A stretch of DNA of 20,000 bases from IMG/VR virus record IMGVR_UViG_3300037466_003063. The stretch is one strand, 5' to 3'. The notes under the pieces were generated by a model. The model was not told the origin of the DNA and ran no database searches. It saw nothing but the letters and a program-made list of their open reading frames with translations. Source of the stretch: an uncultured virus (IMG/VR IMGVR_UViG_3300037466_003063) (taxonomy: Duplodnaviria; Heunggongvirae; Uroviricota; Caudoviricetes). The position numbers and the translations under genes were made by a program. The number at the start of each line of letters is the position of its first letter. Positions within the stretch are counted from its first letter, which is position 1. Positions 1,390 through 19,897 of the stretch are shown one piece after another.

Positions 1390-1578
1390 ATGCTGCAGAC
1401 CGTCATCAACGATGTGATCGCCCAGGCTCGCCTGCGGATCGAGACTCGCGTGTCGACTGCCGAAGACGAAATCGTCGCCATCGGCAAGGAGCTTTCGGCG
1501 CGTATCAGGAAGCGTGCTCTGCTTTCCGTCGCCGTCACCGCCGTCATCAGTTTCGCGCTCGGTGCGATTCTGTTTTAA
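1390..1578 (+). CDS. Small protein with C-terminal TM helix (62 aa)
   Basis: RBS AAAGGAG before ATG 1390. Helical N-terminus and C-terminal ALLSVAVTAVISFALGAILF. Confidence 0.7.
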   Translation: MLQTVINDVIAQARLRIETRVSTAEDEIVAIGKELSARIRKRALLSVAVTAVISFALGAILF

Positions 1579-1597
1579 TTGCGGTTTCAATAAACGG

Positions 1598-1626
1598 TTG
1601 ACGTAGTCACGACTCGTCTGTAGTCA
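1598..1626 (+). promoter_or_regulatory. Sigma70-like promoter for the non-coding region
   Basis: TTGACG (1598-1603), 17 nt spacer, TAGTCA (1621-1626). Overlapped by operator-like TCAATAAACGGTTGA (1587-1601). Confidence 0.65.
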
Positions 1627-1632
1627 ACCGAA

Positions 1633-2300
1633 TCAGTCGGTGGCGACGGGAAGCATGGTAAGCCGGAGAGGGGTTGCAAACCCTCAAAGGAGCCGCCCGA
1701 GACCCGCTTGGCCCGAGGTCTGGTTGCGATATATCGGGCAGAGAGAATCATCTTCCGGCGGCGGCCGGAACACCGACAACGAGTTTGGGGACCGGTTACT
1801 TCCGCTCTGCAGAGAGGGAGCGATGGCCCAAATAAGCGAGGCTCTACGGCTCGCAGGACGATGCAGTTCTGCTTGCCGGACATGCGGAGTGGCCGTGCCG
1901 CAGCTTCGACGAAGAACCCCCTCGGCGGGATCCTGCATCGGGTCGGCTGCCGAGGGGAGCGGTGACACCTGCGAGGCGGGGAGTGCTGCTGCTCTGGGAT
2001 GGACGCACGGATCTGCGTTCGCCACACTAAGGAGTCGGCAGGATCCCACTCCCCTTCTCGCAGGTGAGCGCCGGCAGCGGGGTGGAGACTCAGCCTCGCA
2101 AGCGCTTAGGAGCATGACAGCCGGTAAATGCTCCCGCGAGTGGACCGTGAACGAGGGTGCTCCTGGCGTCCGACAGTCCTCATCCAGGTAGGGGAACGGC
2201 GAGTTCGGCCAAGGCGGTCTGTTGCGTCTTAGCCGGTTTCCTCGTCGGCCTCTGCTCGAAGCCCCGCCGGTCAACGCATGACACCGGCGGGGCTTTTCTG
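1633..2300 (+). ncRNA. Candidate large structured non-coding RNA (~650 nt), family unassigned
   Basis: Bounded by a promoter and an intrinsic terminator, with no credible ORF. Many helices: 1636-1642/1771-1777, 1695-1700/1734-1739, 1753-1759/1764-1770, 1784-1789/1827-1832, 1918-1926/1949-1957, 1966-1975/2057-2066, 1978-1985/2047-2054, 2109-2115/2128-2134. Confidence 0.7.
2259..2300 (+). terminator. Intrinsic terminator
   Basis: 13 bp stem AAGCCCCGCCGGT (2259-2271)/ACCGGCGGGGCTT (2283-2295) followed by TTCTGTT. Confidence 0.85.
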
Positions 2301-2370
2301 TTAGAAACCGCAGAACCAACGTAGTTGATTCGGGAAGGGACTGTCAGTGGCAGCTGATGGTCCCTTTTTT

Positions 2371-4980
2371 CTATACCCCGAACAGGTCGATCCCCATCTT
2401 GATGCGGTACGCTTCTTCATCACCGCGGTAGTAGAGCCGCTGCTGGCCGTAGGTCTTGTGCCGGTAGCGCTCGCCCCAACAGAACCATCCCGGTACGAGC
2501 CGCATCGCGCGGCCGAGCGTCTGCGCCGCCTGCTGGTTGTACGATTTCGCGTCCGAGCCGAGGCATTCGACCCAGATTTCGACCAGGCAGGTTTCGTCGC
2601 GCGGCTTGGCCGGTCCTTCGTCGTCCATTCCGCCGGTCGACACAGGGCGATCAAGCCATGCAGCGATCCTGCCAGCGAGTGCGTCGTCCGCGGATTCGAC
2701 CCGAGCAGACTCCTGCCGCCGTGCGGCAATCACCTTGGCTTCTTCGTCGTCGAGATAGAGCGGCAGCGTGCCACGTGGCTGCACCGAGCGCATCTGGCGG
2801 TAAATCGCCACCGCCTCGGCCCAAAGCTGGTCGACTTCGCGCTCCAGACGGTCGGTATCGATTTCCTCGACGTGGCAGCTGACCGGCCAGTAGCGGCGAC
2901 CGCCGGTGTCGTCCTTCAGGTAGCGGTCGTCGTTGGTCGAACCGATGAAGATGCACTGCCGGTCGTACTGCTCGGCGCGGCGGTTGTAGGCGAGGCGAAC
3001 CTTGTCGGTGCGGCGGCTGATGAACGCCTTGATGTGGCGAACGTCAGCGCGGGCGAAGCCGGAAAGCTCGGGGATTTCGAGGATCCATGCTCCCTGCATC
3101 AACTCGACCATCTGCTTGGCGTCCTCGAAGTCGCCGTCGAGTTCGGCGAACCAGCTTTTCGCGAGGATCGAGATGAAGGTCGATTTGCGCTTGCCCTGCA
3201 GACCTTCGAGAATCACCGCGAAGTCGAACTTGTGACCTGGCTCGAACACGCGGGTCACGCCGGCGGTGAGCATCAGCCGAGCTACAGACCGGTGGTAGGC
3301 GTCGTCGGGCGCCCCGACATATTCCACGAAAAGGCGCTCGATTCGCTCGGTTCCGTCCCACTGCAGACCGGAGAGATATTCCCGAACGGGGTGAAAGGCG
3401 TTCTTACGACCAGCGATGTTGATCGCTGCACGTAAATCTCGGTCGGGAACCTTGATCCCATAACCGCCCTGAGTTTCCGGAGCTTCGATGAGCGCCCTGA
3501 TCGCATCGTCCTTGTCCTCGGTCCAGAAGTCCCCGTTGATCGTGTCCCGAAGCACCCATGACGGGCCTTCCAACTGCAGCGGCTGCTTCGCCTGGTTCTT
3601 CCGCTTCGGGTTTTTACGACCCGGCTGGCCGCGCTGCACGATTTCCTTGGTGAACTCGTTGTAGGAAGCGACGCCGCGCGTCCAGATGTCGTTCTCGACG
3701 ATCAGCCGGAGGTTGTGCAGCGTCGGCTTGAGACCGCCTTCCTCGTTGAAGTGCAACAGCGACTTCCAGTCGAGCTTGAGCGCTTCGGCGCGCTCCTCGG
3801 GAGACAGGTCTAGCGCGGCGAGGTCGTCATCTTCGATGAGTTCGTCGAAGTCGCTGGATTCCCCCTCAAGCTCGTCGAAATCGCTTGCCTCACTGCTTTT
3901 CTCAGGCGCCCGTGCAAGCTCGTCAAAGTCGCTCGCATCTCCGGCGTCATCCGAATCGAAACTATCATCGGTGGGTGCCTCCTCGAAGTCGTCGAACTGG
4001 TCGCGCAGCGCCGCGGCACGCGCATCCGCGGCCCATTGCCGAACGGTCGCCATTGTCACCGGCTGGCGGCGGTTGCGGCCGAACCCGCGCCACTTCTTGC
4101 GCATCTCACGCAAGCCAGCCTTGGTGTCGTCGAACTTCTCCGAGCGCTTCGACTGCTCGACCCAGAGATCGAAGCCGGCATCGCTCGCACCGAACTGGTG
4201 GTGGAGCGCCTGCCCGAGCGTCACCCAATCGTGATAATCGTCTAAGCGCTCGACCGGCAGCGACTCAAGGTCGCGCTCCATCTGACCCGGCTTGAAGGTC
4301 AGTGGCTCTCGCGTCTCGAATTCATACTCTGCGGTTTCAGCGGCGCCGAGCGATTCGATGACGTTCGCGGGAATGTGATGCACCTCGACGCCGAACAGCA
4401 TCGAATCGAGGTCGAACGGCCGTTCCCAGACGTACGGTTTGCCGGTGTCGGGATGAATCGAGGGCGGCATCGCGACATGCTTGCCCGTACCGAAAAGTTC
4501 GATTTCCCAATCGTACGACCAGACCTCTTTCTTCCGGTCGTGGTCATAGCGCCGGTGCTTGCCCTCGCTGACCGCGAGCTTCTTGCCGAAGAAGGGCTTG
4601 TCGGTCGTGAAATAGAGGTGCCGTGATTCGCCGCCTGACCCTGACTGGACCGAGGGCAGCGCCTTTACATCGACACCGGGCAGCAGCTTGGCGAGCGCTT
4701 CCCGCGCTTCCTCGGCACATTCCGCGATGCGGATGTCCATGTCGATGACAAGCAGATAGTCGCCGTTGACCAGATGCGACGGTTCACCGAGTCGCACGCC
4801 AAGATTGTTGCCGCGCGCGTGCGTCGACCGGAGCGTGTCGAGCGACGCGACGGCGCGTTCCGACCAATCGTTGCCGATCGGCCGCTTGGTGCGCGGATGC
4901 AGCCAATGACAGGCGAAGCCCGCATCGCGCAGCGGCCCGATGGCCGCGAGGACAGAATTATCGTGCGGATCGGTGCTCAT
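2371..4980 (-). CDS. Primase-helicase: N-terminal Prim-Pol domain, PriCT-2, acidic linker, C-terminal VirE/VapE-type P-loop helicase
   Basis: Prim-pol motifs NLGVRLG, VIDMD, SRHLYF, VAMPPSIHPDTG. PriCT-2-like YHDWVTLGQALH. Walker A GLQGKRKST and FIGSTNDDRYLKDDTGGRRYWP. Confidence 0.92.
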   Translation of the reverse strand: MSTDPHDNSVLAAIGPLRDAGFACHWLHPRTKRPIGNDWSERAVASLDTLRSTHARGNNLGVRLGEPSHLVNGDYLLVIDMDIRIAECAEEAREALAKLLPGVDVKALPSVQSGSGGESRHLYFTTDKPFFGKKLAVSEGKHRRYDHDRKKEVWSYDWEIELFGTGKHVAMPPSIHPDTGKPYVWERPFDLDSMLFGVEVHHIPANVIESLGAAETAEYEFETREPLTFKPGQMERDLESLPVERLDDYHDWVTLGQALHHQFGASDAGFDLWVEQSKRSEKFDDTKAGLREMRKKWRGFGRNRRQPVTMATVRQWAADARAAALRDQFDDFEEAPTDDSFDSDDAGDASDFDELARAPEKSSEASDFDELEGESSDFDELIEDDDLAALDLSPEERAEALKLDWKSLLHFNEEGGLKPTLHNLRLIVENDIWTRGVASYNEFTKEIVQRGQPGRKNPKRKNQAKQPLQLEGPSWVLRDTINGDFWTEDKDDAIRALIEAPETQGGYGIKVPDRDLRAAINIAGRKNAFHPVREYLSGLQWDGTERIERLFVEYVGAPDDAYHRSVARLMLTAGVTRVFEPGHKFDFAVILEGLQGKRKSTFISILAKSWFAELDGDFEDAKQMVELMQGAWILEIPELSGFARADVRHIKAFISRRTDKVRLAYNRRAEQYDRQCIFIGSTNDDRYLKDDTGGRRYWPVSCHVEEIDTDRLEREVDQLWAEAVAIYRQMRSVQPRGTLPLYLDDEEAKVIAARRQESARVESADDALAGRIAAWLDRPVSTGGMDDEGPAKPRDETCLVEIWVECLGSDAKSYNQQAAQTLGRAMRLVPGWFCWGERYRHKTYGQQRLYYRGDEEAYRIKMGIDLFGV

Positions 4981-6204: not shown

Positions 6205-6390
6205 ATGATGAACGCAAACCTGCCCAACAGGACCCTCGAAGACATTCTCGACATCGCGTTCGTGATGCGAGGTCTGCCGCGGCACGTTCGCGACATCAGC
6301 ATTCTGGAATCGGAGAATGTCGTCGACTGTCGCGACCTGTTTCTCCGGCGGAGCCGCATGGCTGAATATCTCTGCAGCGACGGCGCATGA
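6205..6390 (+). CDS. Small hypothetical protein
   Basis: Its stop overlaps the ATG of the HNH gene (ATGA). Confidence 0.55.
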   Translation: MMNANLPNRTLEDILDIAFVMRGLPRHVRDISILESENVVDCRDLFLRRSRMAEYLCSDGA

Positions 6391-6923
6391 GCGAAGAGTG
6401 GAGAGATATTAACGGTCACGCAGGCTACCAGGTGAGCAACCTAGGTCGCGTGAGATCACTCGATCGAGTGAAAGTCTGCCGCGGTAGATGGGGGCTGTGC
6501 AAGCGTCGCCTCAAAGGTCGAATGCTAACGACGACGCGATTTCGTAATGGGTATCTCGGTATCGTGCTAGGAAGTGGCTCTAAATCTCATTTGGTACACC
6601 GTCTGGTTGCGCAAGCGTTCATTGCAAACCCGCTCGAACTTCCAGAAGTAAATCATAAAGATGGGATTAGAAGCAACAATGTTGTCGGGAACTTGGAATG
6701 GGTAAGCAGCACCGGCAATAAATTGCATTCCTACCGAGAGTTGGGCCGGAAGCAGCACGAGTGGACAATTCCTGTCGCACTTGTTGGCGGGTCTGAAAGA
6801 TTGGAATTTCCGTCAGAGTTGGCAGCTGCAAAGCATCTCGGCGTGGACGCCGGAAGTATTCGTTCCGCCCTAAAGCGAGATCATTGCTGCAGAGGTTGGC
6901 GCGTTGAAAGGATTGCGGCGTGA
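6387..6923 (+). CDS. NUMOD4-HNH homing endonuclease
   Basis: NUMOD4 EEWRDINGHAGYQVSNLGRVRS; HNH core VHRLVAQAF...VNHKDGIRSNNVVGNLEW; C-terminal HTH-like FPSELAAAKHLGV. Visibly lower GC than neighbours. Confidence 0.92.
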   Translation: MSEEWRDINGHAGYQVSNLGRVRSLDRVKVCRGRWGLCKRRLKGRMLTTTRFRNGYLGIVLGSGSKSHLVHRLVAQAFIANPLELPEVNHKDGIRSNNVVGNLEWVSSTGNKLHSYRELGRKQHEWTIPVALVGGSERLEFPSELAAAKHLGVDAGSIRSALKRDHCCRGWRVERIAA

Positions 6924-11469: not shown

Positions 11470-12942
11470 GTGTTCCAGCAGAACATCCTGCTGTCGATCG
11501 CGACGTGCGCACCGCTGCCGGTCTACGAGGGAGCGCCGTTCTCCGAAGCAGCAATCCACCAGTGGTCGCTGCGTGACTATCAGGTCGCGCTGCTCACCGA
11601 AGTCGCGCGGCTCATGGCACTCGGCTACCGGCGCATCCTCATCCAGCTGCCGACCGGCGGCGGCAAGACGCGCATGGCCGGCGCGATGCTCGGCAGCATC
11701 GATGGAACCGGCCAGTTCATCGTTCACCGCAAGGAACTGATCGACCAGACCAGCAGCACGTTCGACGAACTCGGCATTCGACACGGCTTCATCGCCGCAG
11801 GGCGACCGGATGACTTCGCGCCGGTGATGCTGGCCGGCGTGCAAACGCTTGTGAATCGCCTCGGGCTGCCTCCGGACCTCGCGATCATCGACGAGGCGCA
11901 TCACGCGACCGCGTCATCCTGGGACCGTATCATGGAGCATTACTATGACTCCTATGCCCTAGGTCTGAGCGCGACGCCGGAACGCCTCGACGGTCGCGGC
12001 CTGCAGGATCACTTCGACGTGATAGTCTGCGGCCCCTCGACCGCCTGGTTGATCGAGCACGGCTACCTGTCGCCGTACAGCTACTATGCGCCGAGCCTGC
12101 CCGACCTTACCGGAGTCCACACCGTCGCCGGCGACTTCAACCGCGGCGAACTCGCGCACGCGATGGACAAGCCGAAGCTCATCGGCGACGTGGTCGAGCA
12201 TTACTTGCAGCTGGCCTCGGGCAAGCAGGGCATCGTCTTCGGCGCGAGCCGCGAACACAGCCGCAACCTCGCCGACGCATTCGCCTTCAACGGCGTTCGA
12301 GCGGCGCACGTCGACGGTTCCATGGGCGACAAGCAGCGCAAAAGCATTGTCGACGCGTTCCGCGAAGGAGCGCTCGACGTGATGACCAACGTCGATTTGT
12401 TCGGCGAGGGATTTGACGTGCCTGGAATCGTCTATGTCGGGCTGGCTCGACCGACGAAATCCCTCGCGCTGTTCCTGCAGCAGGTCGGCCGCGGCCTTCG
12501 CGTGATACCGGGCAAAACCGAAGCGGTCATCTGCGATCATGCCGGCAATGCGTTCCGCCACGGCCTGCCCGACGACGAGCGCGAATGGAAGCTCGAAGGC
12601 CGACCGAAGCAGGCCCGCGGCGCTCCGGCAGATGCGTTTCCCATCCGCCAGTGCGAAACTTGCTTCCGCATTTCCCCGAGCAGCGTCCGCGAGTGTCCCG
12701 GCTGCGGTGAGGAATTCCCGATTCAGGTTCGCGAGCTACGGCAGGAAGCCGGAAAGCTCACCAAGCTCGAACGCGAGGAGCTTCGCAAGGCAGCCTCTCG
12801 CCGGCGGAAAGCCGAGGAGAAGGAATGCAAGACCTATGAGCAGTTCAAGTCGCTGGCGATCGCCCGCGGCTACGATCACCCGCACGCTTGGGCGAAGATG
12901 AAAATGTCGTTCAAGAACGGCGGTTATCGCAGGAGAGTTTGA
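11470..12942 (+). CDS. SF2 DEAH helicase with C-terminal Zn finger (RadD/YejH-like)
   Basis: LRDYQ, PTGGGKT, DEAHH, SAT, EGFDVP, QQVGRGLR, CETC...CPGC. Exact start uncertain. Confidence 0.92.
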   Translation: MFQQNILLSIATCAPLPVYEGAPFSEAAIHQWSLRDYQVALLTEVARLMALGYRRILIQLPTGGGKTRMAGAMLGSIDGTGQFIVHRKELIDQTSSTFDELGIRHGFIAAGRPDDFAPVMLAGVQTLVNRLGLPPDLAIIDEAHHATASSWDRIMEHYYDSYALGLSATPERLDGRGLQDHFDVIVCGPSTAWLIEHGYLSPYSYYAPSLPDLTGVHTVAGDFNRGELAHAMDKPKLIGDVVEHYLQLASGKQGIVFGASREHSRNLADAFAFNGVRAAHVDGSMGDKQRKSIVDAFREGALDVMTNVDLFGEGFDVPGIVYVGLARPTKSLALFLQQVGRGLRVIPGKTEAVICDHAGNAFRHGLPDDEREWKLEGRPKQARGAPADAFPIRQCETCFRISPSSVRECPGCGEEFPIQVRELRQEAGKLTKLEREELRKAASRRRKAEEKECKTYEQFKSLAIARGYDHPHAWAKMKMSFKNGGYRRRV

Positions 12943-13423: not shown

Positions 13424-14185
13424 GTGCTAATGACAACGACCACTGAAGTCCGCCCGCCGAAGCGGTCCTCTGTGGCGCCTACAGGGAAGCCAGGGAGTCA
13501 GCTAATCCAAGCGCCGCAGGCCCGCGTCATTCGGGATCCAGCCTTTGCTCATCGCCTCGAAAGTGCGTGCGATGCGCATCCTCATGCTCCGGATAAACAT
13601 CGCGGCCGCCTCGGCTGGCTGAAGGAGATGATGAAGAAGCAGGGTGTCGAGGTAAGCCACGAAACGTGCCGTAAGTGGTTTGCCGGCGAAGCTCGCCCGC
13701 GACCTGACAAGATGAACATTCTTGCCCAGGTGCTCGAAGTCGATCCTGCATGGCTTGCCATGGGTATCGATCCCGAGCTTCAGCCACACGAGCGGAAGGT
13801 GCGCAACGCGATGGCTGATGGCACCGTGAACCTGATTGCTGGCTTCGTGCAGATGGATGGCGGCTATCCGGCGTTCCCTGATGACGATGATCCTCGGGCG
13901 AATGCGGACAATGTCGACCTCTATGCGATCATCCGTGGCGTCAATTACGGCTTTCATGTCGTACTCGGCGAGAAGACTGATGCGGGTCTTCGGTTCCTGA
14001 TTCCAGCGGCTCACACGAACGTCGTCGTACTCGGCGTCATCCGTCTTACGTCGTTTCAGATTCAGGTCTACGAGCTTCAGGGCGATGTCATCAGGAAGTT
14101 CGGCAATAATCGTGGCGGCGCGATCGAGGTGGTGGCCGAGCCATCTGATCTGCGCAAGATCGATAACTTCCGCGAGCGGCTTTAA
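13424..14185 (+). CDS. XRE/cI-like HTH repressor with uncharacterised C-terminal domain
   Basis: HTH VSHETCRKWFAGEARPRPDKMNILAQVLEVDPAWLAMG. Has its own promoter, RBS GGGGAG and terminator. Confidence 0.82.
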   Translation: MLMTTTTEVRPPKRSSVAPTGKPGSQLIQAPQARVIRDPAFAHRLESACDAHPHAPDKHRGRLGWLKEMMKKQGVEVSHETCRKWFAGEARPRPDKMNILAQVLEVDPAWLAMGIDPELQPHERKVRNAMADGTVNLIAGFVQMDGGYPAFPDDDDPRANADNVDLYAIIRGVNYGFHVVLGEKTDAGLRFLIPAAHTNVVVLGVIRLTSFQIQVYELQGDVIRKFGNNRGGAIEVVAEPSDLRKIDNFRERL

Positions 14186-15060: not shown

Positions 15061-15255
15061 GTGACCAAGCCAGCCCGCTTTCGCCAGTCCGATGTGACGC
15101 GCTTCTTCAAGGGAGCCGAGAAGGCCGGCGTGCAGTTGGCCCGTGTTGAGGTGGATCCTGTTACGGGACGATTGATTGGCGTGGTCGGTGCCGCTGTTGC
15201 TAGCGGTATAGGGGAAGAAGGACCGAACGAATGGGACGCCGCCCTTCAGACATAG
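15061..15255 (+). CDS. Probable excisionase / recombination directionality factor
   Basis: 64 aa protein (MTKPARFRQSDVTR...EWD) that overlaps the integrase start. Function is inferred from position. Confidence 0.6.
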   Translation: MTKPARFRQSDVTRFFKGAEKAGVQLARVEVDPVTGRLIGVVGAAVASGIGEEGPNEWDAALQT

Positions 15256-16373
15256 AGAAGCTGCCGCCTCACGTTTCAGCTTATTCAGATCGACACGGGA
15301 AGCGCCGCTACCGCTATCGCAAGACAGGCGCGAAGACCTACCACTTCAAGGGGCATCCTGGCACACCGCGGCATCCGAGCGAGGAATATAAGCGGGTCGC
15401 TGCTGGCGAGGTGCCTGCCAATGACACGCCGCGAGCAAAGCCTGGAACGATCGACGACCTCGTGATGCGTTGGTACGGGAGCGCCGACTTCAATTCGGCC
15501 TCCGAGCGCACGCGCACGAAGAACCGAGCGATCATTGAGGATTTTCGTTGCAGGTTCGGTACGCTTCACGCGTCGACAATGCGCTTCAGCAATGTCGAAA
15601 CCATCTTGGTCGCCAAGGCGAAAAAGAATGGCAACTCAGGCGGCCCATTTGCGGCTCAACGTCTTCGGAAATTGCTGCGGCGCCTGTTCGAGTTGGCGAT
15701 GAAGCTGCACTCGGCAAAGGTGATCGGATATGAAGGAATGACCGTCAATCCAGTCGAGTTGGCAGATGCTCCAGCTGTTCCGAAGACAAAGGGTTTCCAT
15801 ACCTGGAGCGATGACGAAATCGCTCAGTTCCGCGCCACTCATCCTGTCGGCACAAAGGCGCGCATGGCACTTGAGCTTCTGCGCTGGACACTGCAGCGCG
15901 GCGGTGACGCGAGAACGTTCAGTCCGAAACAGCGGAAGAACGGCCACATCGAAATCTGGAATGAGAAGACAGACAAGTATTCCTGGGTGCCAGAGCCTGC
16001 GCAGCTAACCGAGACGATCGAGGCAATGACGGTCATTGGCACCGAAACGCTGCTCGTCACTCAGTTCGGCAAGCCGTTCACCGAGAAGGGCTTCAGCAAC
16101 TGGTTCAAGAAGCAGTGCGTCGCCGCCGGCCTGCCGCATTGCACTGCTCATGGAGTCCGTAAGTCGACCGCACGCCAACTGGTAGATCACGTCGAGGCGA
16201 CGCAGCAGGAGCTTAAAGCTGCGGGTAACTGGAGTCAGGATCGAGAGGTTGCAACCTACGTTAAGGACGCCAATCAGAAGAAGCTCGCTGGTGCCGCCCT
16301 CACCCGTTTGGCCGAGTGGGATTTGGCGAACCATGGTTCTTCGGTTCGCCAAACAAAAGACTTAGGCGATTGA
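15231..16373 (+). CDS. int: Tyrosine integrase
   Basis: Arm-binding N-terminus DRHGKRRYRYRK; catalytic R (TLQRGGD), K (NEKT), HGVRK, GNW, and Y (VATY). Confidence 0.93.
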   Translation: MGRRPSDIEKLPPHVSAYSDRHGKRRYRYRKTGAKTYHFKGHPGTPRHPSEEYKRVAAGEVPANDTPRAKPGTIDDLVMRWYGSADFNSASERTRTKNRAIIEDFRCRFGTLHASTMRFSNVETILVAKAKKNGNSGGPFAAQRLRKLLRRLFELAMKLHSAKVIGYEGMTVNPVELADAPAVPKTKGFHTWSDDEIAQFRATHPVGTKARMALELLRWTLQRGGDARTFSPKQRKNGHIEIWNEKTDKYSWVPEPAQLTETIEAMTVIGTETLLVTQFGKPFTEKGFSNWFKKQCVAAGLPHCTAHGVRKSTARQLVDHVEATQQELKAAGNWSQDREVATYVKDANQKKLAGAALTRLAEWDLANHGSSVRQTKDLGD

Positions 16374-16906: not shown

Positions 16907-17019
16907 GCGCATTCTACACGATGCTCGCGGAATGCTGCCTCGGTTGGGGCCACCTGTTTCTGCGTCTCAGCGAATGGCTGATCGATCGCGCAATGAGAGC
17001 GGAGATCGGTGACCTGTGA
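16903..17019 (+). CDS. Small hypothetical protein (38 aa, MSAFYTMLAECCLGWGHLFLRLSEWLIDRAMRAEIGDL)
   Basis: Hand-translated. Coupled at both ends: ATGA with the upstream gene and GTGA with the small terminase. Confidence 0.6.
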   Translation: MSAFYTMLAECCLGWGHLFLRLSEWLIDRAMRAEIGDL

Positions 17020-17765
17020 GCGAATTCGATGAGCTAATTGACGCTCCGCCCAAACGGAAGCGCGGTCCCGGCCGTCCCCGAAAAGAAGAAGTCGCAGCCC
17101 GCCTCGCCGAGCAGGAGCGCGAGGAAGAAGACTTCTGGTCGACGCCGGCGATGCAGGCAGCCATGAAGTCTGCTGCATCGGGCAACACGCTGATCGACGA
17201 ACGCGTCTTCCACATGCCCGTGTCGCAGAATTTCCTCGCGCGGGTCTTCGTCATGGACACGATGACGGTCAACCGTCGTCTGCGGCGCCTGAAGCCGGTC
17301 GGCTACGCCGGCGGCGAGAAGCAGAAGCGTCCGCTCTACGATTTCAAGTCTGCGTGCGAACATCTTCTCAAGCCGAAGATGGACATCGACACGTATCTCG
17401 CGACCCTGAACCCGGCGGACATGCCGAACGCCATCAACAAGACGTTCTGGGAAGCCAAGCGGATCAAGCTGAAGTTCGAGATCGAGGCGGGCCAAGCCTG
17501 GGCGACCGAGGACGTGCTGGAGGTCTTCGGCCGCATGGCGATGACGATCAAGAGTCATTCGCAGCTGTGGGTCGAGAATATGCGCTCGGCGCTGTCCGAC
17601 GAGCAGCTGGCGAAGCTCTCGACCATGGTCGACGTGTTCAACTCGGAACTCCACGACATGCTGATGGAGGAGCCGAAGAAGCGGCAGACCCGCAGCCGCC
17701 TCGCGGCGATCGAGCACGAGATGTTGGGCGACGATGACGATGAGGATGAGGGCGCTGCGGCGTAA
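17016..17765 (+). CDS. Terminase small subunit (DUF1441/Nu1-like)
   Basis: Directly upstream of and coupled (TAATG) to the large terminase. Winged-HTH-like segment, NKTFWEAKRIKLKFEIEAGQAW, and N-terminal AT-hook-like GRPRK. Confidence 0.82.
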   Translation: MSEFDELIDAPPKRKRGPGRPRKEEVAARLAEQEREEEDFWSTPAMQAAMKSAASGNTLIDERVFHMPVSQNFLARVFVMDTMTVNRRLRRLKPVGYAGGEKQKRPLYDFKSACEHLLKPKMDIDTYLATLNPADMPNAINKTFWEAKRIKLKFEIEAGQAWATEDVLEVFGRMAMTIKSHSQLWVENMRSALSDEQLAKLSTMVDVFNSELHDMLMEEPKKRQTRSRLAAIEHEMLGDDDDEDEGAAA

Positions 17766-19897
17766 TGCACACCGTCATTCACCCGACCACCAAGGAGGAA
17801 ATCACCCTCTTTGACTCGCTTGAGGAGATGATCGTCGCGGCCGCCGATGCGGTGCGACCGCCGGAGCGCATCACGGTCAGTGAGGCCGCCGAGCGCTATC
17901 ACATCGTCAACAATCCCGGCCAGCATGTCGGGCCGTTCAGTCTCGACCGGACACCGTACCTGCGCGAGCCGATGGATGTGCTGACCAGCCTCGATTATAC
18001 GGGCATGGCGTTCCTCGGGCCGGCGCGTACCGGCAAGTCGGCGATGTTCATCAACTGGCTGTGCTCGACGGCGATCATGGATCCGGCGGACATGATGATC
18101 GTTCACATGGCGCAGCATACCGCGCGCGAATGGTCGCAGGCCGACCTCGCCAAGGCGATTCGCAACAGCCCCGAGCTTCGCAAGCGCATGACTCCCGGTC
18201 GGCAGAACGATAACGTCTTCGACAAGCACTTCCTCAGCGGGATGCGCTTGGGCATCACCTGGCCGACCATCAATAACCTCTCGGGCAAGACCATCCCGCG
18301 CAGCTGGCTGATGGATTATGACCGAATGCCGCAGAACGTCGACGGCGAAGGCAACCCGTTCGATCTCACGAAGAAGCGCGGCGACACGTTCGGCCGCTAT
18401 GCGATGACGGGCGTTGAGGCGTCGCCAGGTTTCCCTGTCAACGACGCGAAGTGGCTCCCGAAGACTCCGCACGAAGGCCCTCCCACCGGCGACGAGAAGA
18501 CCGGTGGCGGCATCGTGCAAATCTACAACCGCGGCGACCGGCGCCGCTGGTACTGGCGCTGTCCGCAGTGCAACGAGTCGTTCCAGCCCCACTTCAAGCT
18601 GCTGCAGTGGCCGAACAGTGCAGACCCGATGGACGCCGCAGAGCAGGTCGTGCTGGTCTGCCCGCATGATGGCTTCCCGATGACGCCGGACATGCAGCAC
18701 GAACTCAACCTTGGCGGTCGTTGGATCAAGGAGGGGCAGGTGTGGCTGCCGGACGGTTCGATTGTCGGCACTCCGCGGCGTTCGGACATCGCATCCTTCT
18801 GGATGTTCGGACCGGCTGCAGGCTTCACCAACTGGAAGCTGCTGGTTCACCGCTACCTGGTAGCACTCGAAGCGTATGAGCGCACCGGCGACGAAGGGCC
18901 GCTGACCACCACGACCAACGTCGACCAAGGCGACGCCTACGTCCCCAAGGTGCTCGAAGCAGGCCGGCTCCCCGAGGAACTGAAACGCCGCGCGCAGGAT
19001 TGGGGCGGCAGCGCTGAGGCGCCGGTCGTTCCGGTCGAGGCCGGAGGCGGTTTCCTCGTCGCGACCGTCGACGTTCAGGCGGGAGGCAAGCCGTCGTTCG
19101 TCGTTCACGTCTATCTCGTCAGCGGCAACGACATCTGGCATGTTGAGATGTTCAAGATCCGCAAATCGAAGCGGGTCGACGGCGACGGCGATCATCACCT
19201 GATCGATCCGGCGTCGCACCCCGAGGATTGGGACCTGCTGATCGAGCAGGTGCTGCAGCGCACCGTGCCGCTCGGCGACGGCAGCGGCCGCAAGATGCAC
19301 ATCAAGATCGTTGGCTGCGACTCCGGCGGCGCGGACGGCGTGACGGCGAATGCCTACGACTTTTATCGTCGGCTGCGCGCCCGCGGCGATGACCTGCATC
19401 GGCGCTTCCATTTGCTGAAGGGCGCACCGAGCCGGACCGAGACAGCACCGCTGCGGCTCACCTATCCGAACGCGCAGCAGAAGGACAAGCTGGCGATCGC
19501 CCGCGGCGACGTTCCCGTCTACCTGATCAACTCGAACATCGTGAAGGATCAGGCGTCTAACATGCTCGGCCGCGAGGAAGCTGGCGGCGCAGTCCATTTC
19601 CCCGCCTGGGCGGAAGACTGGCTCTACACGCAGTTGACGACCGAGGTCCGCACCGCGAAGGGATGGGAAAATCCGAGCCGGCGTCGCAACGAAGCGTTCG
19701 ACTTGCTGTCCTACTGCATCGCGCTGTTGAGCCATCCGGACATTCGCGCGCACGTTGCAGGCTTCTGGGAGAAGCCGCCGTCATGGGCAGGGCCATGGGA
19801 GAGCAACGAGTTCGTTACCGGCGAAGGTGCTCCAGCGCCGTACGAGGCGAAGACCGAGCGCAAATCGCTCAAGGACATCGGCGACACCTTGCTTTAG
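17765..19897 (+). CDS. Terminase large subunit, lambda gpA family
   Basis: RPPERITVSEAA, TPYLREPMD, Walker A GPARTGKS, GDRRRWYWRCPQC, nuclease motifs TVDVQ, CDSGG and RNEAFDL. Confidence 0.95.
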   Translation: MHTVIHPTTKEEITLFDSLEEMIVAAADAVRPPERITVSEAAERYHIVNNPGQHVGPFSLDRTPYLREPMDVLTSLDYTGMAFLGPARTGKSAMFINWLCSTAIMDPADMMIVHMAQHTAREWSQADLAKAIRNSPELRKRMTPGRQNDNVFDKHFLSGMRLGITWPTINNLSGKTIPRSWLMDYDRMPQNVDGEGNPFDLTKKRGDTFGRYAMTGVEASPGFPVNDAKWLPKTPHEGPPTGDEKTGGGIVQIYNRGDRRRWYWRCPQCNESFQPHFKLLQWPNSADPMDAAEQVVLVCPHDGFPMTPDMQHELNLGGRWIKEGQVWLPDGSIVGTPRRSDIASFWMFGPAAGFTNWKLLVHRYLVALEAYERTGDEGPLTTTTNVDQGDAYVPKVLEAGRLPEELKRRAQDWGGSAEAPVVPVEAGGGFLVATVDVQAGGKPSFVVHVYLVSGNDIWHVEMFKIRKSKRVDGDGDHHLIDPASHPEDWDLLIEQVLQRTVPLGDGSGRKMHIKIVGCDSGGADGVTANAYDFYRRLRARGDDLHRRFHLLKGAPSRTETAPLRLTYPNAQQKDKLAIARGDVPVYLINSNIVKDQASNMLGREEAGGAVHFPAWAEDWLYTQLTTEVRTAKGWENPSRRRNEAFDLLSYCIALLSHPDIRAHVAGFWEKPPSWAGPWESNEFVTGEGAPAPYEAKTERKSLKDIGDTLL

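Follow-up and report, generated by a model that had tools for sequence, protein, structure and literature searches.

Genomic setting of the gap

The window analyzed here, a stretch of 20,000 nt, is taken from the minus strand of an IMG/VR virus record of 45.9 kb (IMGVR_UViG_3300037466_003063), of which it covers the first 20 kb; the record is estimated to be 68% complete. Its source is a temperate phage of the Sphingomonas type, with an integrase gene (15231-16373), a repressor-like gene (13424-14185), and terminase genes (17016-19897); the closest cellular relatives of its primase are found on two Sphingomonas chromosomes, at 57-58% identity. Pfam and PHROG scans also identified a replication block with genes for a DNA polymerase, a helicase, a Gp2.5-like SSB, and a DUF2800 exonuclease. 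Within this block, an HNH/NUMOD4 endonuclease gene (6387-6923) occupies a patch of low GC content (0.52 vs about 0.61) and is probably a homing endonuclease insertion. The same DNA is contained in 11 DNA sequencing runs from soil and rhizosphere, with every sampled word present in each; no RNA run was among the runs listed.

Our analysis concerns a gap of 790 nt (about 1580-2370) between the stop codon of the plus-strand ORF 1354-1578 and the stop codon, at 2371, of a convergent primase-helicase gene (Table 1). ORF 1354-1578 lies directly 5' of the candidate RNA described below, encodes 74 aa, and has coding-type GC periodicity. Its product carries a hydrophobic C-terminal segment (LLSVAVTAVISFALGAILF), like a tail-anchored small membrane protein, and neither this ORF nor ORF 363-788 has relatives among viral contigs. 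Between these two ORFs, codon periodicity is weak over 901-1350 (best GC3-GC2 0.06-0.08), where the gene content is uncertain and a further non-coding stretch may be present. No tRNA or tmRNA was found, nor was any partner gene (reverse transcriptase, IscB/TnpB-type, or other) among 63 ORFs compared with PHROGs and 14 compared with Pfam.

In relatives with a 48-68% identical primase, the DNA 3' of the primase gene is unrelated. One of them (L002) has TGTCACAG iterons and a small ORF downstream of its primase gene, and iterons of the same type are found in the present phage ~4 kb upstream, outside the window. The small-gene block and the candidate RNA therefore make up an accessory insertion. 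The iteron cluster itself (at about 22154-22752 of G000:C1, equivalent to about 3154-3752 of L015) consists of nine copies of CCTGTCAC(A) and eight of ACTTAGGCA in ~600 nt and is likely the replication origin; the gap was considered for this role and rejected, since the iterons are ~4 kb off and outside the window. Elsewhere in L015, a GC-rich array of tandem repeats (periods 25, 40, and 54 nt; matches 83-98%) occupies 12664-12887 (about 31664-31887 of G000:C1), where there is no assigned gene.

Table 1. Features in and around the gap, with positions in the window
Feature	Position	Strand	Basis and details
Terminator-like hairpin and T-run at the end of the small-gene operon	1553-1577	+	Terminator scan: TCGCGCTCGGTGCGA then TTCTGTTTTA
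Promoter-like/operator-like site	1596-1630	+	TTGACG 1598-1603, 17-nt spacer, TAGTCA 1621-1626; read by eye
Candidate structured non-coding RNA, ~665 nt	1633-2298	+	No codon periodicity, MFE z-score, strand bias; ends inferred
Predicted hairpin, 7-bp stem, 6-nt loop GAUGCA (1860-1865)	1853-1872	+	Fold; loop unpaired probability 0.99-1.0
Predicted hairpin, 11-bp stem, weak 5-bp apical helix, 6-nt loop UGCAUC (1934-1939)	1918-1957	+	Fold; GGAUCC at 1928-1933
Long imperfect hairpin, strongest local structure	1966-2066	+	20 nt, 90% complementary; window 1950-2099 z -3.7
Two short predicted hairpins with CCGGC (2071-2075) and GCCGG (2120-2124)	2067-2134	+	Fold
Island kept in the second allele	2132-2209	+	9 differences in 78 nt (88%)
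Intrinsic terminator, perfect 13-bp GC-rich stem and U-rich tail	2258-2302	+	Inverted-repeat search, fold
Second hairpin, GGGAC...GTCCC then TTTTTT	2337-2370	+	Adjoins the primase-helicase stop codon; 150-nt window 2250-2399 z -5.2
Primase-helicase gene, convergent with the gap	2371-4980	-	Prim-Pol, PriCT_2, and VapE-like domains

Coding capacity

Open reading frames of 183, 211, and 146 aa run across the gap on both strands, and gene callers have taken the first of these, 1640-2191, for a gene, of which a 178-aa version stands in public gene calls from three contigs. If the call were right, the gap would encode a fast-evolving orphan protein. The limits of this ORF nearly coincide with those of the allele-specific cassette described below, the two cassettes appear to differ in length by 24 nt, a multiple of three, and the open runs exceed those of shuffled sequences, the longest being 219 codons (P 0.042) and the second 194 (P 0.004). 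However, codon-position GC is flat in the gap ORFs (0.59-0.68 at all three positions), as against about 0.65/0.43/0.80 in the real genes of this phage; for ORF 1640-2191 it is 0.62/0.68/0.64, so that GC2 is higher than GC1 and GC3, unlike in every real gene here. The presence of three long overlapping ORFs on both strands is typical of GC-rich non-coding DNA, and we attribute the longish open runs to the GC-rich center of the gap. Stop codons are not depleted (36 vs 38.5 +/- 4.3 in shuffles), no Shine-Dalgarno sequence lies upstream of 1640, and the translations are rich in Arg, Ser, Gly, and Pro. None of the gap ORF products matched a Pfam or PHROG family, and the 183-aa product of 1640-2191 matched only itself among 5.8 billion protein clusters. 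The gap is non-coding and the 178-aa gene call is spurious, which makes an orphan protein a very improbable explanation of the locus. Because of it, pipelines limited to intergenic regions would overlook the locus.

Transcription signals and predicted fold

The promoter-like site and the terminators of the gap would together delimit a plus-strand transcription unit of ~665 nt. The promoter-like site also contains an inverted repeat (GGTTGAC/GTCAACC) and two direct copies of GTAGTCA, and its absence from the list given by a consensus scan is explained by a poor -10 hexamer. At the other end, the two arms of the terminator stem (2259-2271/2283-2295) are 13 nt long, GC-rich, and 100% complementary, and are followed by a U-run, CTTTTCTGTT; a simple terminator scan did not list this site. 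The terminator stem, at 2261-2297, recurs in unrelated low-depth contigs of the same sequencing runs, with a shorter loop and other flanks. A perfect 9-nt inverted repeat, TGCGGTTTC/GAAACCGCA (1580-1588/2304-2312), brackets the entire gap, but was rejected as a signal since pairs of at least 9 nt occur at this level by chance (1.26 +/- 1.07 in shuffles).

Folding energies set the gap apart from most of its surroundings. The region 1600-2300 on the plus strand folds at -339.5 kcal/mol (z -4.20, 20 shuffles), and the candidate RNA itself, 1633-2298, has an MFE of -331.7 kcal/mol, with z -4.21 against 12 shuffles and -4.89 against 40. On the minus strand, 1633-2298 folds at -288.1 kcal/mol (z -3.0), the plus strand being better by 43.6 kcal/mol. 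No other window among the 20 folded reached so low an energy as plus-strand 1633-2298 or gained as much relative to its shuffles (-35.6 kcal/mol). The z-scores of 18 control windows of the same length elsewhere ranged from +0.6 to -4.5, and as one coding control window reached -4.48 (12 shuffles), the z-score of the gap is extreme but not unique. Locally, in 150-nt windows on the plus strand, z is -2.8 for 1750-1899, -2.4 and -3.7 within 1900-2099, and -4.3 and -5.2 within the terminator region 2150-2399, whereas it stays near 0 in the 5' third (1600-1750); the values of -2.8, -2.4, and -3.7 compare with +0.15, +0.34, and -2.2 on the minus strand. The gap therefore holds strong local hairpins (Table 1) with a clear strand asymmetry. 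In the hairpin at 1966-2066, GAUCC (2042-2046) forms an internal loop and CGGAUC (2008-2013) the apical loop. The MFE structure has 12 hairpin loops, and no GNRA or UNCG tetraloop is among them. The ensemble diversity of 1633-2298 is at the level of shuffles (170.3 vs 169.9 +/- 40.1), so the global fold is ill defined and the long-range closing helix of the MFE structure is not to be trusted.

We tentatively read 1633-2298 (+) as an orphan, phage-encoded, structured non-coding transcript of ~665 nt, which would be transcribed from its own promoter-like site and stopped by the intrinsic terminator. Its slot, flanked by the small-gene block and the convergent primase-helicase gene, is accessory and variable. 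The best rival to this reading, and itself a real possibility, is that the gap is a fast-evolving functionless spacer or recombination scar between convergent units, in which the hairpins are terminators and accidents of high GC content and the complementarities have arisen by chance. The shuffle-level ensemble diversity suits such a spacer, as does the inclusion of the terminator region in the strongest local z-scores. It fits poorly with the overall z-scores (-4.2 to -4.9), with a plus-strand bias that is also found outside the terminators (1750-1899 and 1950-2099), and with the size of the gap, as 790 nt is a long non-coding stretch by phage standards.

Long-range complementarities

The original prediction placed several long-range loop-loop pairings, pseudoknots or a switch, inside the candidate RNA, and the complementarities on which it drew are exact: GGGATCCTGC (1927-1936) is a perfect complement of GCAGGATCCC (2038-2047), CGATGCAG (1859-1866) is a perfect complement of CTGCATCG (1933-1940), and CCGGC (2071-2075) complements GCCGG (2120-2124), while the stem 1918-1926/1949-1957 is 9 nt long and 100% complementary. 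To set these against chance, perfect complements were counted in 300 dinucleotide shuffles of 1600-2300. There are three complements of at least 10 nt in the real sequence vs 0.28 +/- 0.56 in the shuffles, 23% of which hold at least one; ordinary local stems account for two of the three (1966-1975/2057-2066 and the terminator). For complements of at least 8 nt the count is nine vs 4.7 +/- 2.2, from which a single 8-mer is to be expected. As strings, then, neither the 10-mer nor the 8-mer goes beyond chance.

Pairing states taken from base-pair probabilities computed for 1633-2298 agree in part with the claim that the 10-nt segments lie in loops: 1934-1936 and 2042-2046 are free, but 1927-1933 (unpaired probability <=0.10) as well as 2038-2041 and 2047 (paired with probability ~1) are held in helices. 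The 10-bp pairing has zero probability in the nested ensemble. A complement of only 5 nt is trivial, and the proposed 5-nt pairing amounts to noise; 2071-2075 and 2121-2124 are mostly paired locally, and their long-range probability is 0.0008. When imposed as nested alternatives, the pairings cost +22.3 kcal/mol for 10 bp, +15.0 for 8 bp, and +5.1 for 5 bp. As a pseudoknot, the 10-bp helix would return -19.3 kcal/mol after the melting of helices at a cost of +21.0, and the 8-bp helix would return -11.5 for a cost of +8.3. The 10-bp and 8-bp pairings were also said to overlap and to compete; they do so in their long forms alone, and when trimmed to 6 bp each they use adjacent segments (1928-1933 and 1934-1939) with no overlap, and a model that combines both (1928-1933/2041-2046 with 1934-1939/1860-1865) is energetically neutral (+14.5 vs -14.9). 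The 10-nt complement GGGAUCCUGC/GCAGGAUCCC is probably a chance match; failing that, its pairing would be at most a roughly isoenergetic alternative conformer. Neither the 10-bp pseudoknot or switch nor the multimerization that had been suggested finds support beyond the sequence itself.

The 8-mer is a different case. Its full length is expected by chance, but its 6-nt core coincides with the complete loops of two predicted 6-nt hairpins, GAUGCA (1860-1865) and UGCAUC (1934-1939). A kissing-loop contact was taken as Watson-Crick complementarity over at least 5 nt between two unpaired hairpin loops, and in the predicted structure all six of six loop positions match with an unpaired probability of at least 0.99. 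The contact would form at zero cost with a gain of -6.5 kcal/mol. A full-loop match arose in 1.7% of cases for hairpin loops and 3.6% for all unpaired segments when the structure was kept and the loop letters were shuffled, and in 7 of 222 (3.2%) and 14 of 222 (6.3%) when the whole sequence was shuffled and refolded; these statistics are post hoc, the tests having been chosen after the match was seen, and depend on the predicted structure. The contact between 1860-1865 and 1934-1939 thus has modest support on the modeled fold. Two whole loops in perfect complement, found in 3% of null models, speak against a functionless spacer, whereas the chance-level 10-mer (23%) is what a spacer would be expected to show. 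Of the reported pairings, the 6-bp kiss is the most likely to form and alone merits follow-up; the re-ranking takes the 10-nt complement out of the evidence and leaves the 6-nt loop-loop match as the pairing worth testing. In the transcript that we tentatively prefer, this intramolecular kiss between sister hairpins (GAUGCA/UGCAUC) would clamp two arms of a central domain (1771-1964).

Another possible reading is an immunity-type or switch-type riboregulator like the P4 CI and P1/P7 c4 RNAs, in which loops pair with sites within the transcript to control termination or processing, with allele-specific cassettes setting the specificity. Mutually exclusive complements of the kind required are present, as 1968-1975 can pair with 1850-1857 or 2057-2064, and 2092-2100 with 1836-1843 or 1970-1977, and the 10-mer and the 8-mer overlap. 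The locus sits in a temperate phage with an integrase and a repressor-like gene, and the cassette is swapped between identical flanks in the population (see below). Yet there is no plus-strand gene downstream to be controlled, the next gene being convergent, and no Rfam family matched, even with E up to 10. The nested alternatives cost +15 to +22 kcal/mol, and complements of at least 8 nt stand only about 2 sd above shuffles. We regard a riboregulator of this type as improbable.

Homologue and RNA-family searches

Searches against RNA families, phage and plasmid collections, and relatives of the phage were uniformly negative for the body of the candidate RNA. None of the 4227 models of Rfam 15 matched at its gathering score across the 20 kb. 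With E up to 10 on 1400-2500, five Rfam matches appeared (E 2.6-8.5), none of them in the RNA body: four of the five fall on terminator-region hairpins (2195-2331) and one in the coding stretch 1429-1500, and they are noise. The ROOL model (RF03087, gathering score 99.1 bits) gave no match at its gathering score in the window and none with E up to 10 in 1400-2500 or in the 45.9-kb record, where the control genomes were also matchless and so the search had no positive control; nor did the GOLLD model (RF02032, gathering score 150 bits) with E up to 10.

At the nucleotide level, blastn with 'distant' settings returned no homologue in 50,697 phage records or 72,556 plasmids. None was found by blastn and nhmmer in seven viral loci with a 57-63% identical primase, nor in the whole records of five of these seven, and the same was true of two Sphingomonas prophage loci together with their genomes and of 11 metagenome loci with a 48-68% identical primase. 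Searches of 401 genomes of the order gave only seven chance matches of 25-43 nt, and those of 401 genomes of the family gave none at E 1e-5. A covariance model of 1915-2070 based on one sequence, with that window segment given twice as input, recovered only itself in 22 sources and nothing in five whole viral records. As a pattern, the 10-mer pair with its gap hit only two unrelated GGATCC-rich coding stretches among viral contigs, where four more patterns (two allele-shared flanks, a hairpin 20-mer, and the conserved island) had zero matches each, in scans that may have passed over records very near the window. The RNA would, by these sequence searches, be an orphan: none of the collections searched yielded a homologue, and nothing points to its conservation. 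This is also what would be expected of a spacer without function, as is the unrelated DNA found 3' of the primase gene in the relatives.

A second allele of the gap

Contigs from four of the DNA runs, aligned at 80% likeness, served to compare alleles of the gap. An identical 846-nt contig (1607-2452) is present in three of the four (X1, X3, and X6), and a 724-nt contig, also in three (X1, X3, and X10), is found at about a fifth of the main depth (17-26 vs 94-102). This shorter contig has both ends of the main allele, 1607-1636 and 2423-2452. The two alleles are identical up to 1636 and split at 1637, immediately 3' of the promoter-like site. From there, nothing in the second allele can be aligned at >=80% across 1637-2131, which appears to have been replaced by about 471 nt; the island that follows is kept (Table 1), and 64 letters then stand in place of 2210-2371. 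At the primase 3' end, the contig shows five differences in 81 nt (about 94% identical). All of the reported pairings fall within the replaced part. Predicted long duplexes joining the island to the 5' region gave no useful information. In run X6, the flank depth is about 168 vs about 118 for the main allele, a surplus that may point to a third allele.

In its behavior the slot resembles a promoter-linked cassette of defined extent that can be exchanged. That its body cannot be aligned at >=80% even between close relatives counts against strong constraint, and a body that has diverged this far next to a primase 3' end of about 94% identity is readily understood if the gap has no function. Against this, the island 2132-2209 has been kept at 88%. 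There is a bolder version of our preferred reading, in which the locus represents a new class of large phage RNA: interchangeable, allele-specific cassettes would stand behind a fixed promoter, and their loops (GAUGCA/UGCAUC and the three GGAUC(C) copies) would build a tertiary or homo-oligomeric architecture, diversified in an arms race over, for example, anti-defense or exclusion specificity. We consider this unlikely, if less so than the riboregulator.

Relation to known RNAs

The function of the putative transcript can only be guessed at, and we would suggest a phage accessory RNA, like other large phage RNAs. Among these, GOLLD and ROOL are located in phages or prophages. As described in PMC12286853, ROOL, GOLLD, and OLE resemble the present locus in their length of 500-800 nt, their many hairpins, and a loop-loop complementarity that includes palindromic loop motifs. 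That source also relates that kissing loops in GOLLD, ROOL, and OLE, at first interpreted as tertiary, turned out to bridge separate molecules, and that loop L9.3 of OLE alternates between palindromes including GAUC (PMC12286853). By analogy, the candidate RNA could be a self-assembling RNA of this kind, with GGAUCC (1928, 2041), GGAUC (2009), and GAUGCA/UGCAUC bridging homo-oligomers. Its size, phage location, and multi-hairpin architecture would fit, and GGAUC(C) occurs three times (at 1928, 2009, and 2041) within 120 nt, twice in unpaired loops. However, three copies are only mildly unusual, as are two GGATCC in 666 nt, given 20 GGATCC sites across the 45.9-kb genome. Unlike ROOL, GOLLD, and OLE, the locus has no model match, no homologue family, no covariation, and no predicted GNRA loops. 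Self-assembly of this kind would be an even less probable reading than the riboregulator, though not as improbable as the orphan protein.

The predicted kiss has its own precedents. ColE1 RNA I/RNA II and the HIV-1 dimerization initiation site are classical kissing complexes, formed by fully complementary hairpin loops. Like these, the candidate RNA has two stable hairpins, in its case predicted, whose entire 6-nt loops are complementary by Watson-Crick pairing. Unlike in ColE1 and HIV-1, both loops lie in one predicted transcript, on sister branches of one domain, so the contact would be a tertiary clamp and not a sense-antisense or dimer contact.

P4 CI and P1/P7 c4 are phage immunity RNAs with internal complementary sites. 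Like them, the locus belongs to a temperate phage, lies near a primase-helicase gene, and has allele-specific sequence and complementary sites in one unit. However, it is about ten times longer, has no downstream gene on the same strand and no Rfam match, and the phage carries a gene for a protein repressor-like product elsewhere (13424-14185).

A catalog of candidate structured RNAs from IMG/VR draws on the same type of source as the present locus, namely viral contigs from metagenomes, and comprises motifs from called intergenic regions, 29-151 nt in length and each with three or more distinct matches (PMC10690425). Its pipeline would miss the locus, which is ~665 nt long, lacks a second copy, and has a called ORF lying over it. 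The locus thus illustrates how comparative pipelines miss loci of this kind when a spurious ORF, here of 178 aa, is called over the RNA. Should the transcript prove real, the small set of known large structured RNAs of phages would gain a high-GC, Sphingomonas-type example from soil, in which closely related phages exchange the RNA body while the promoter stays the same.
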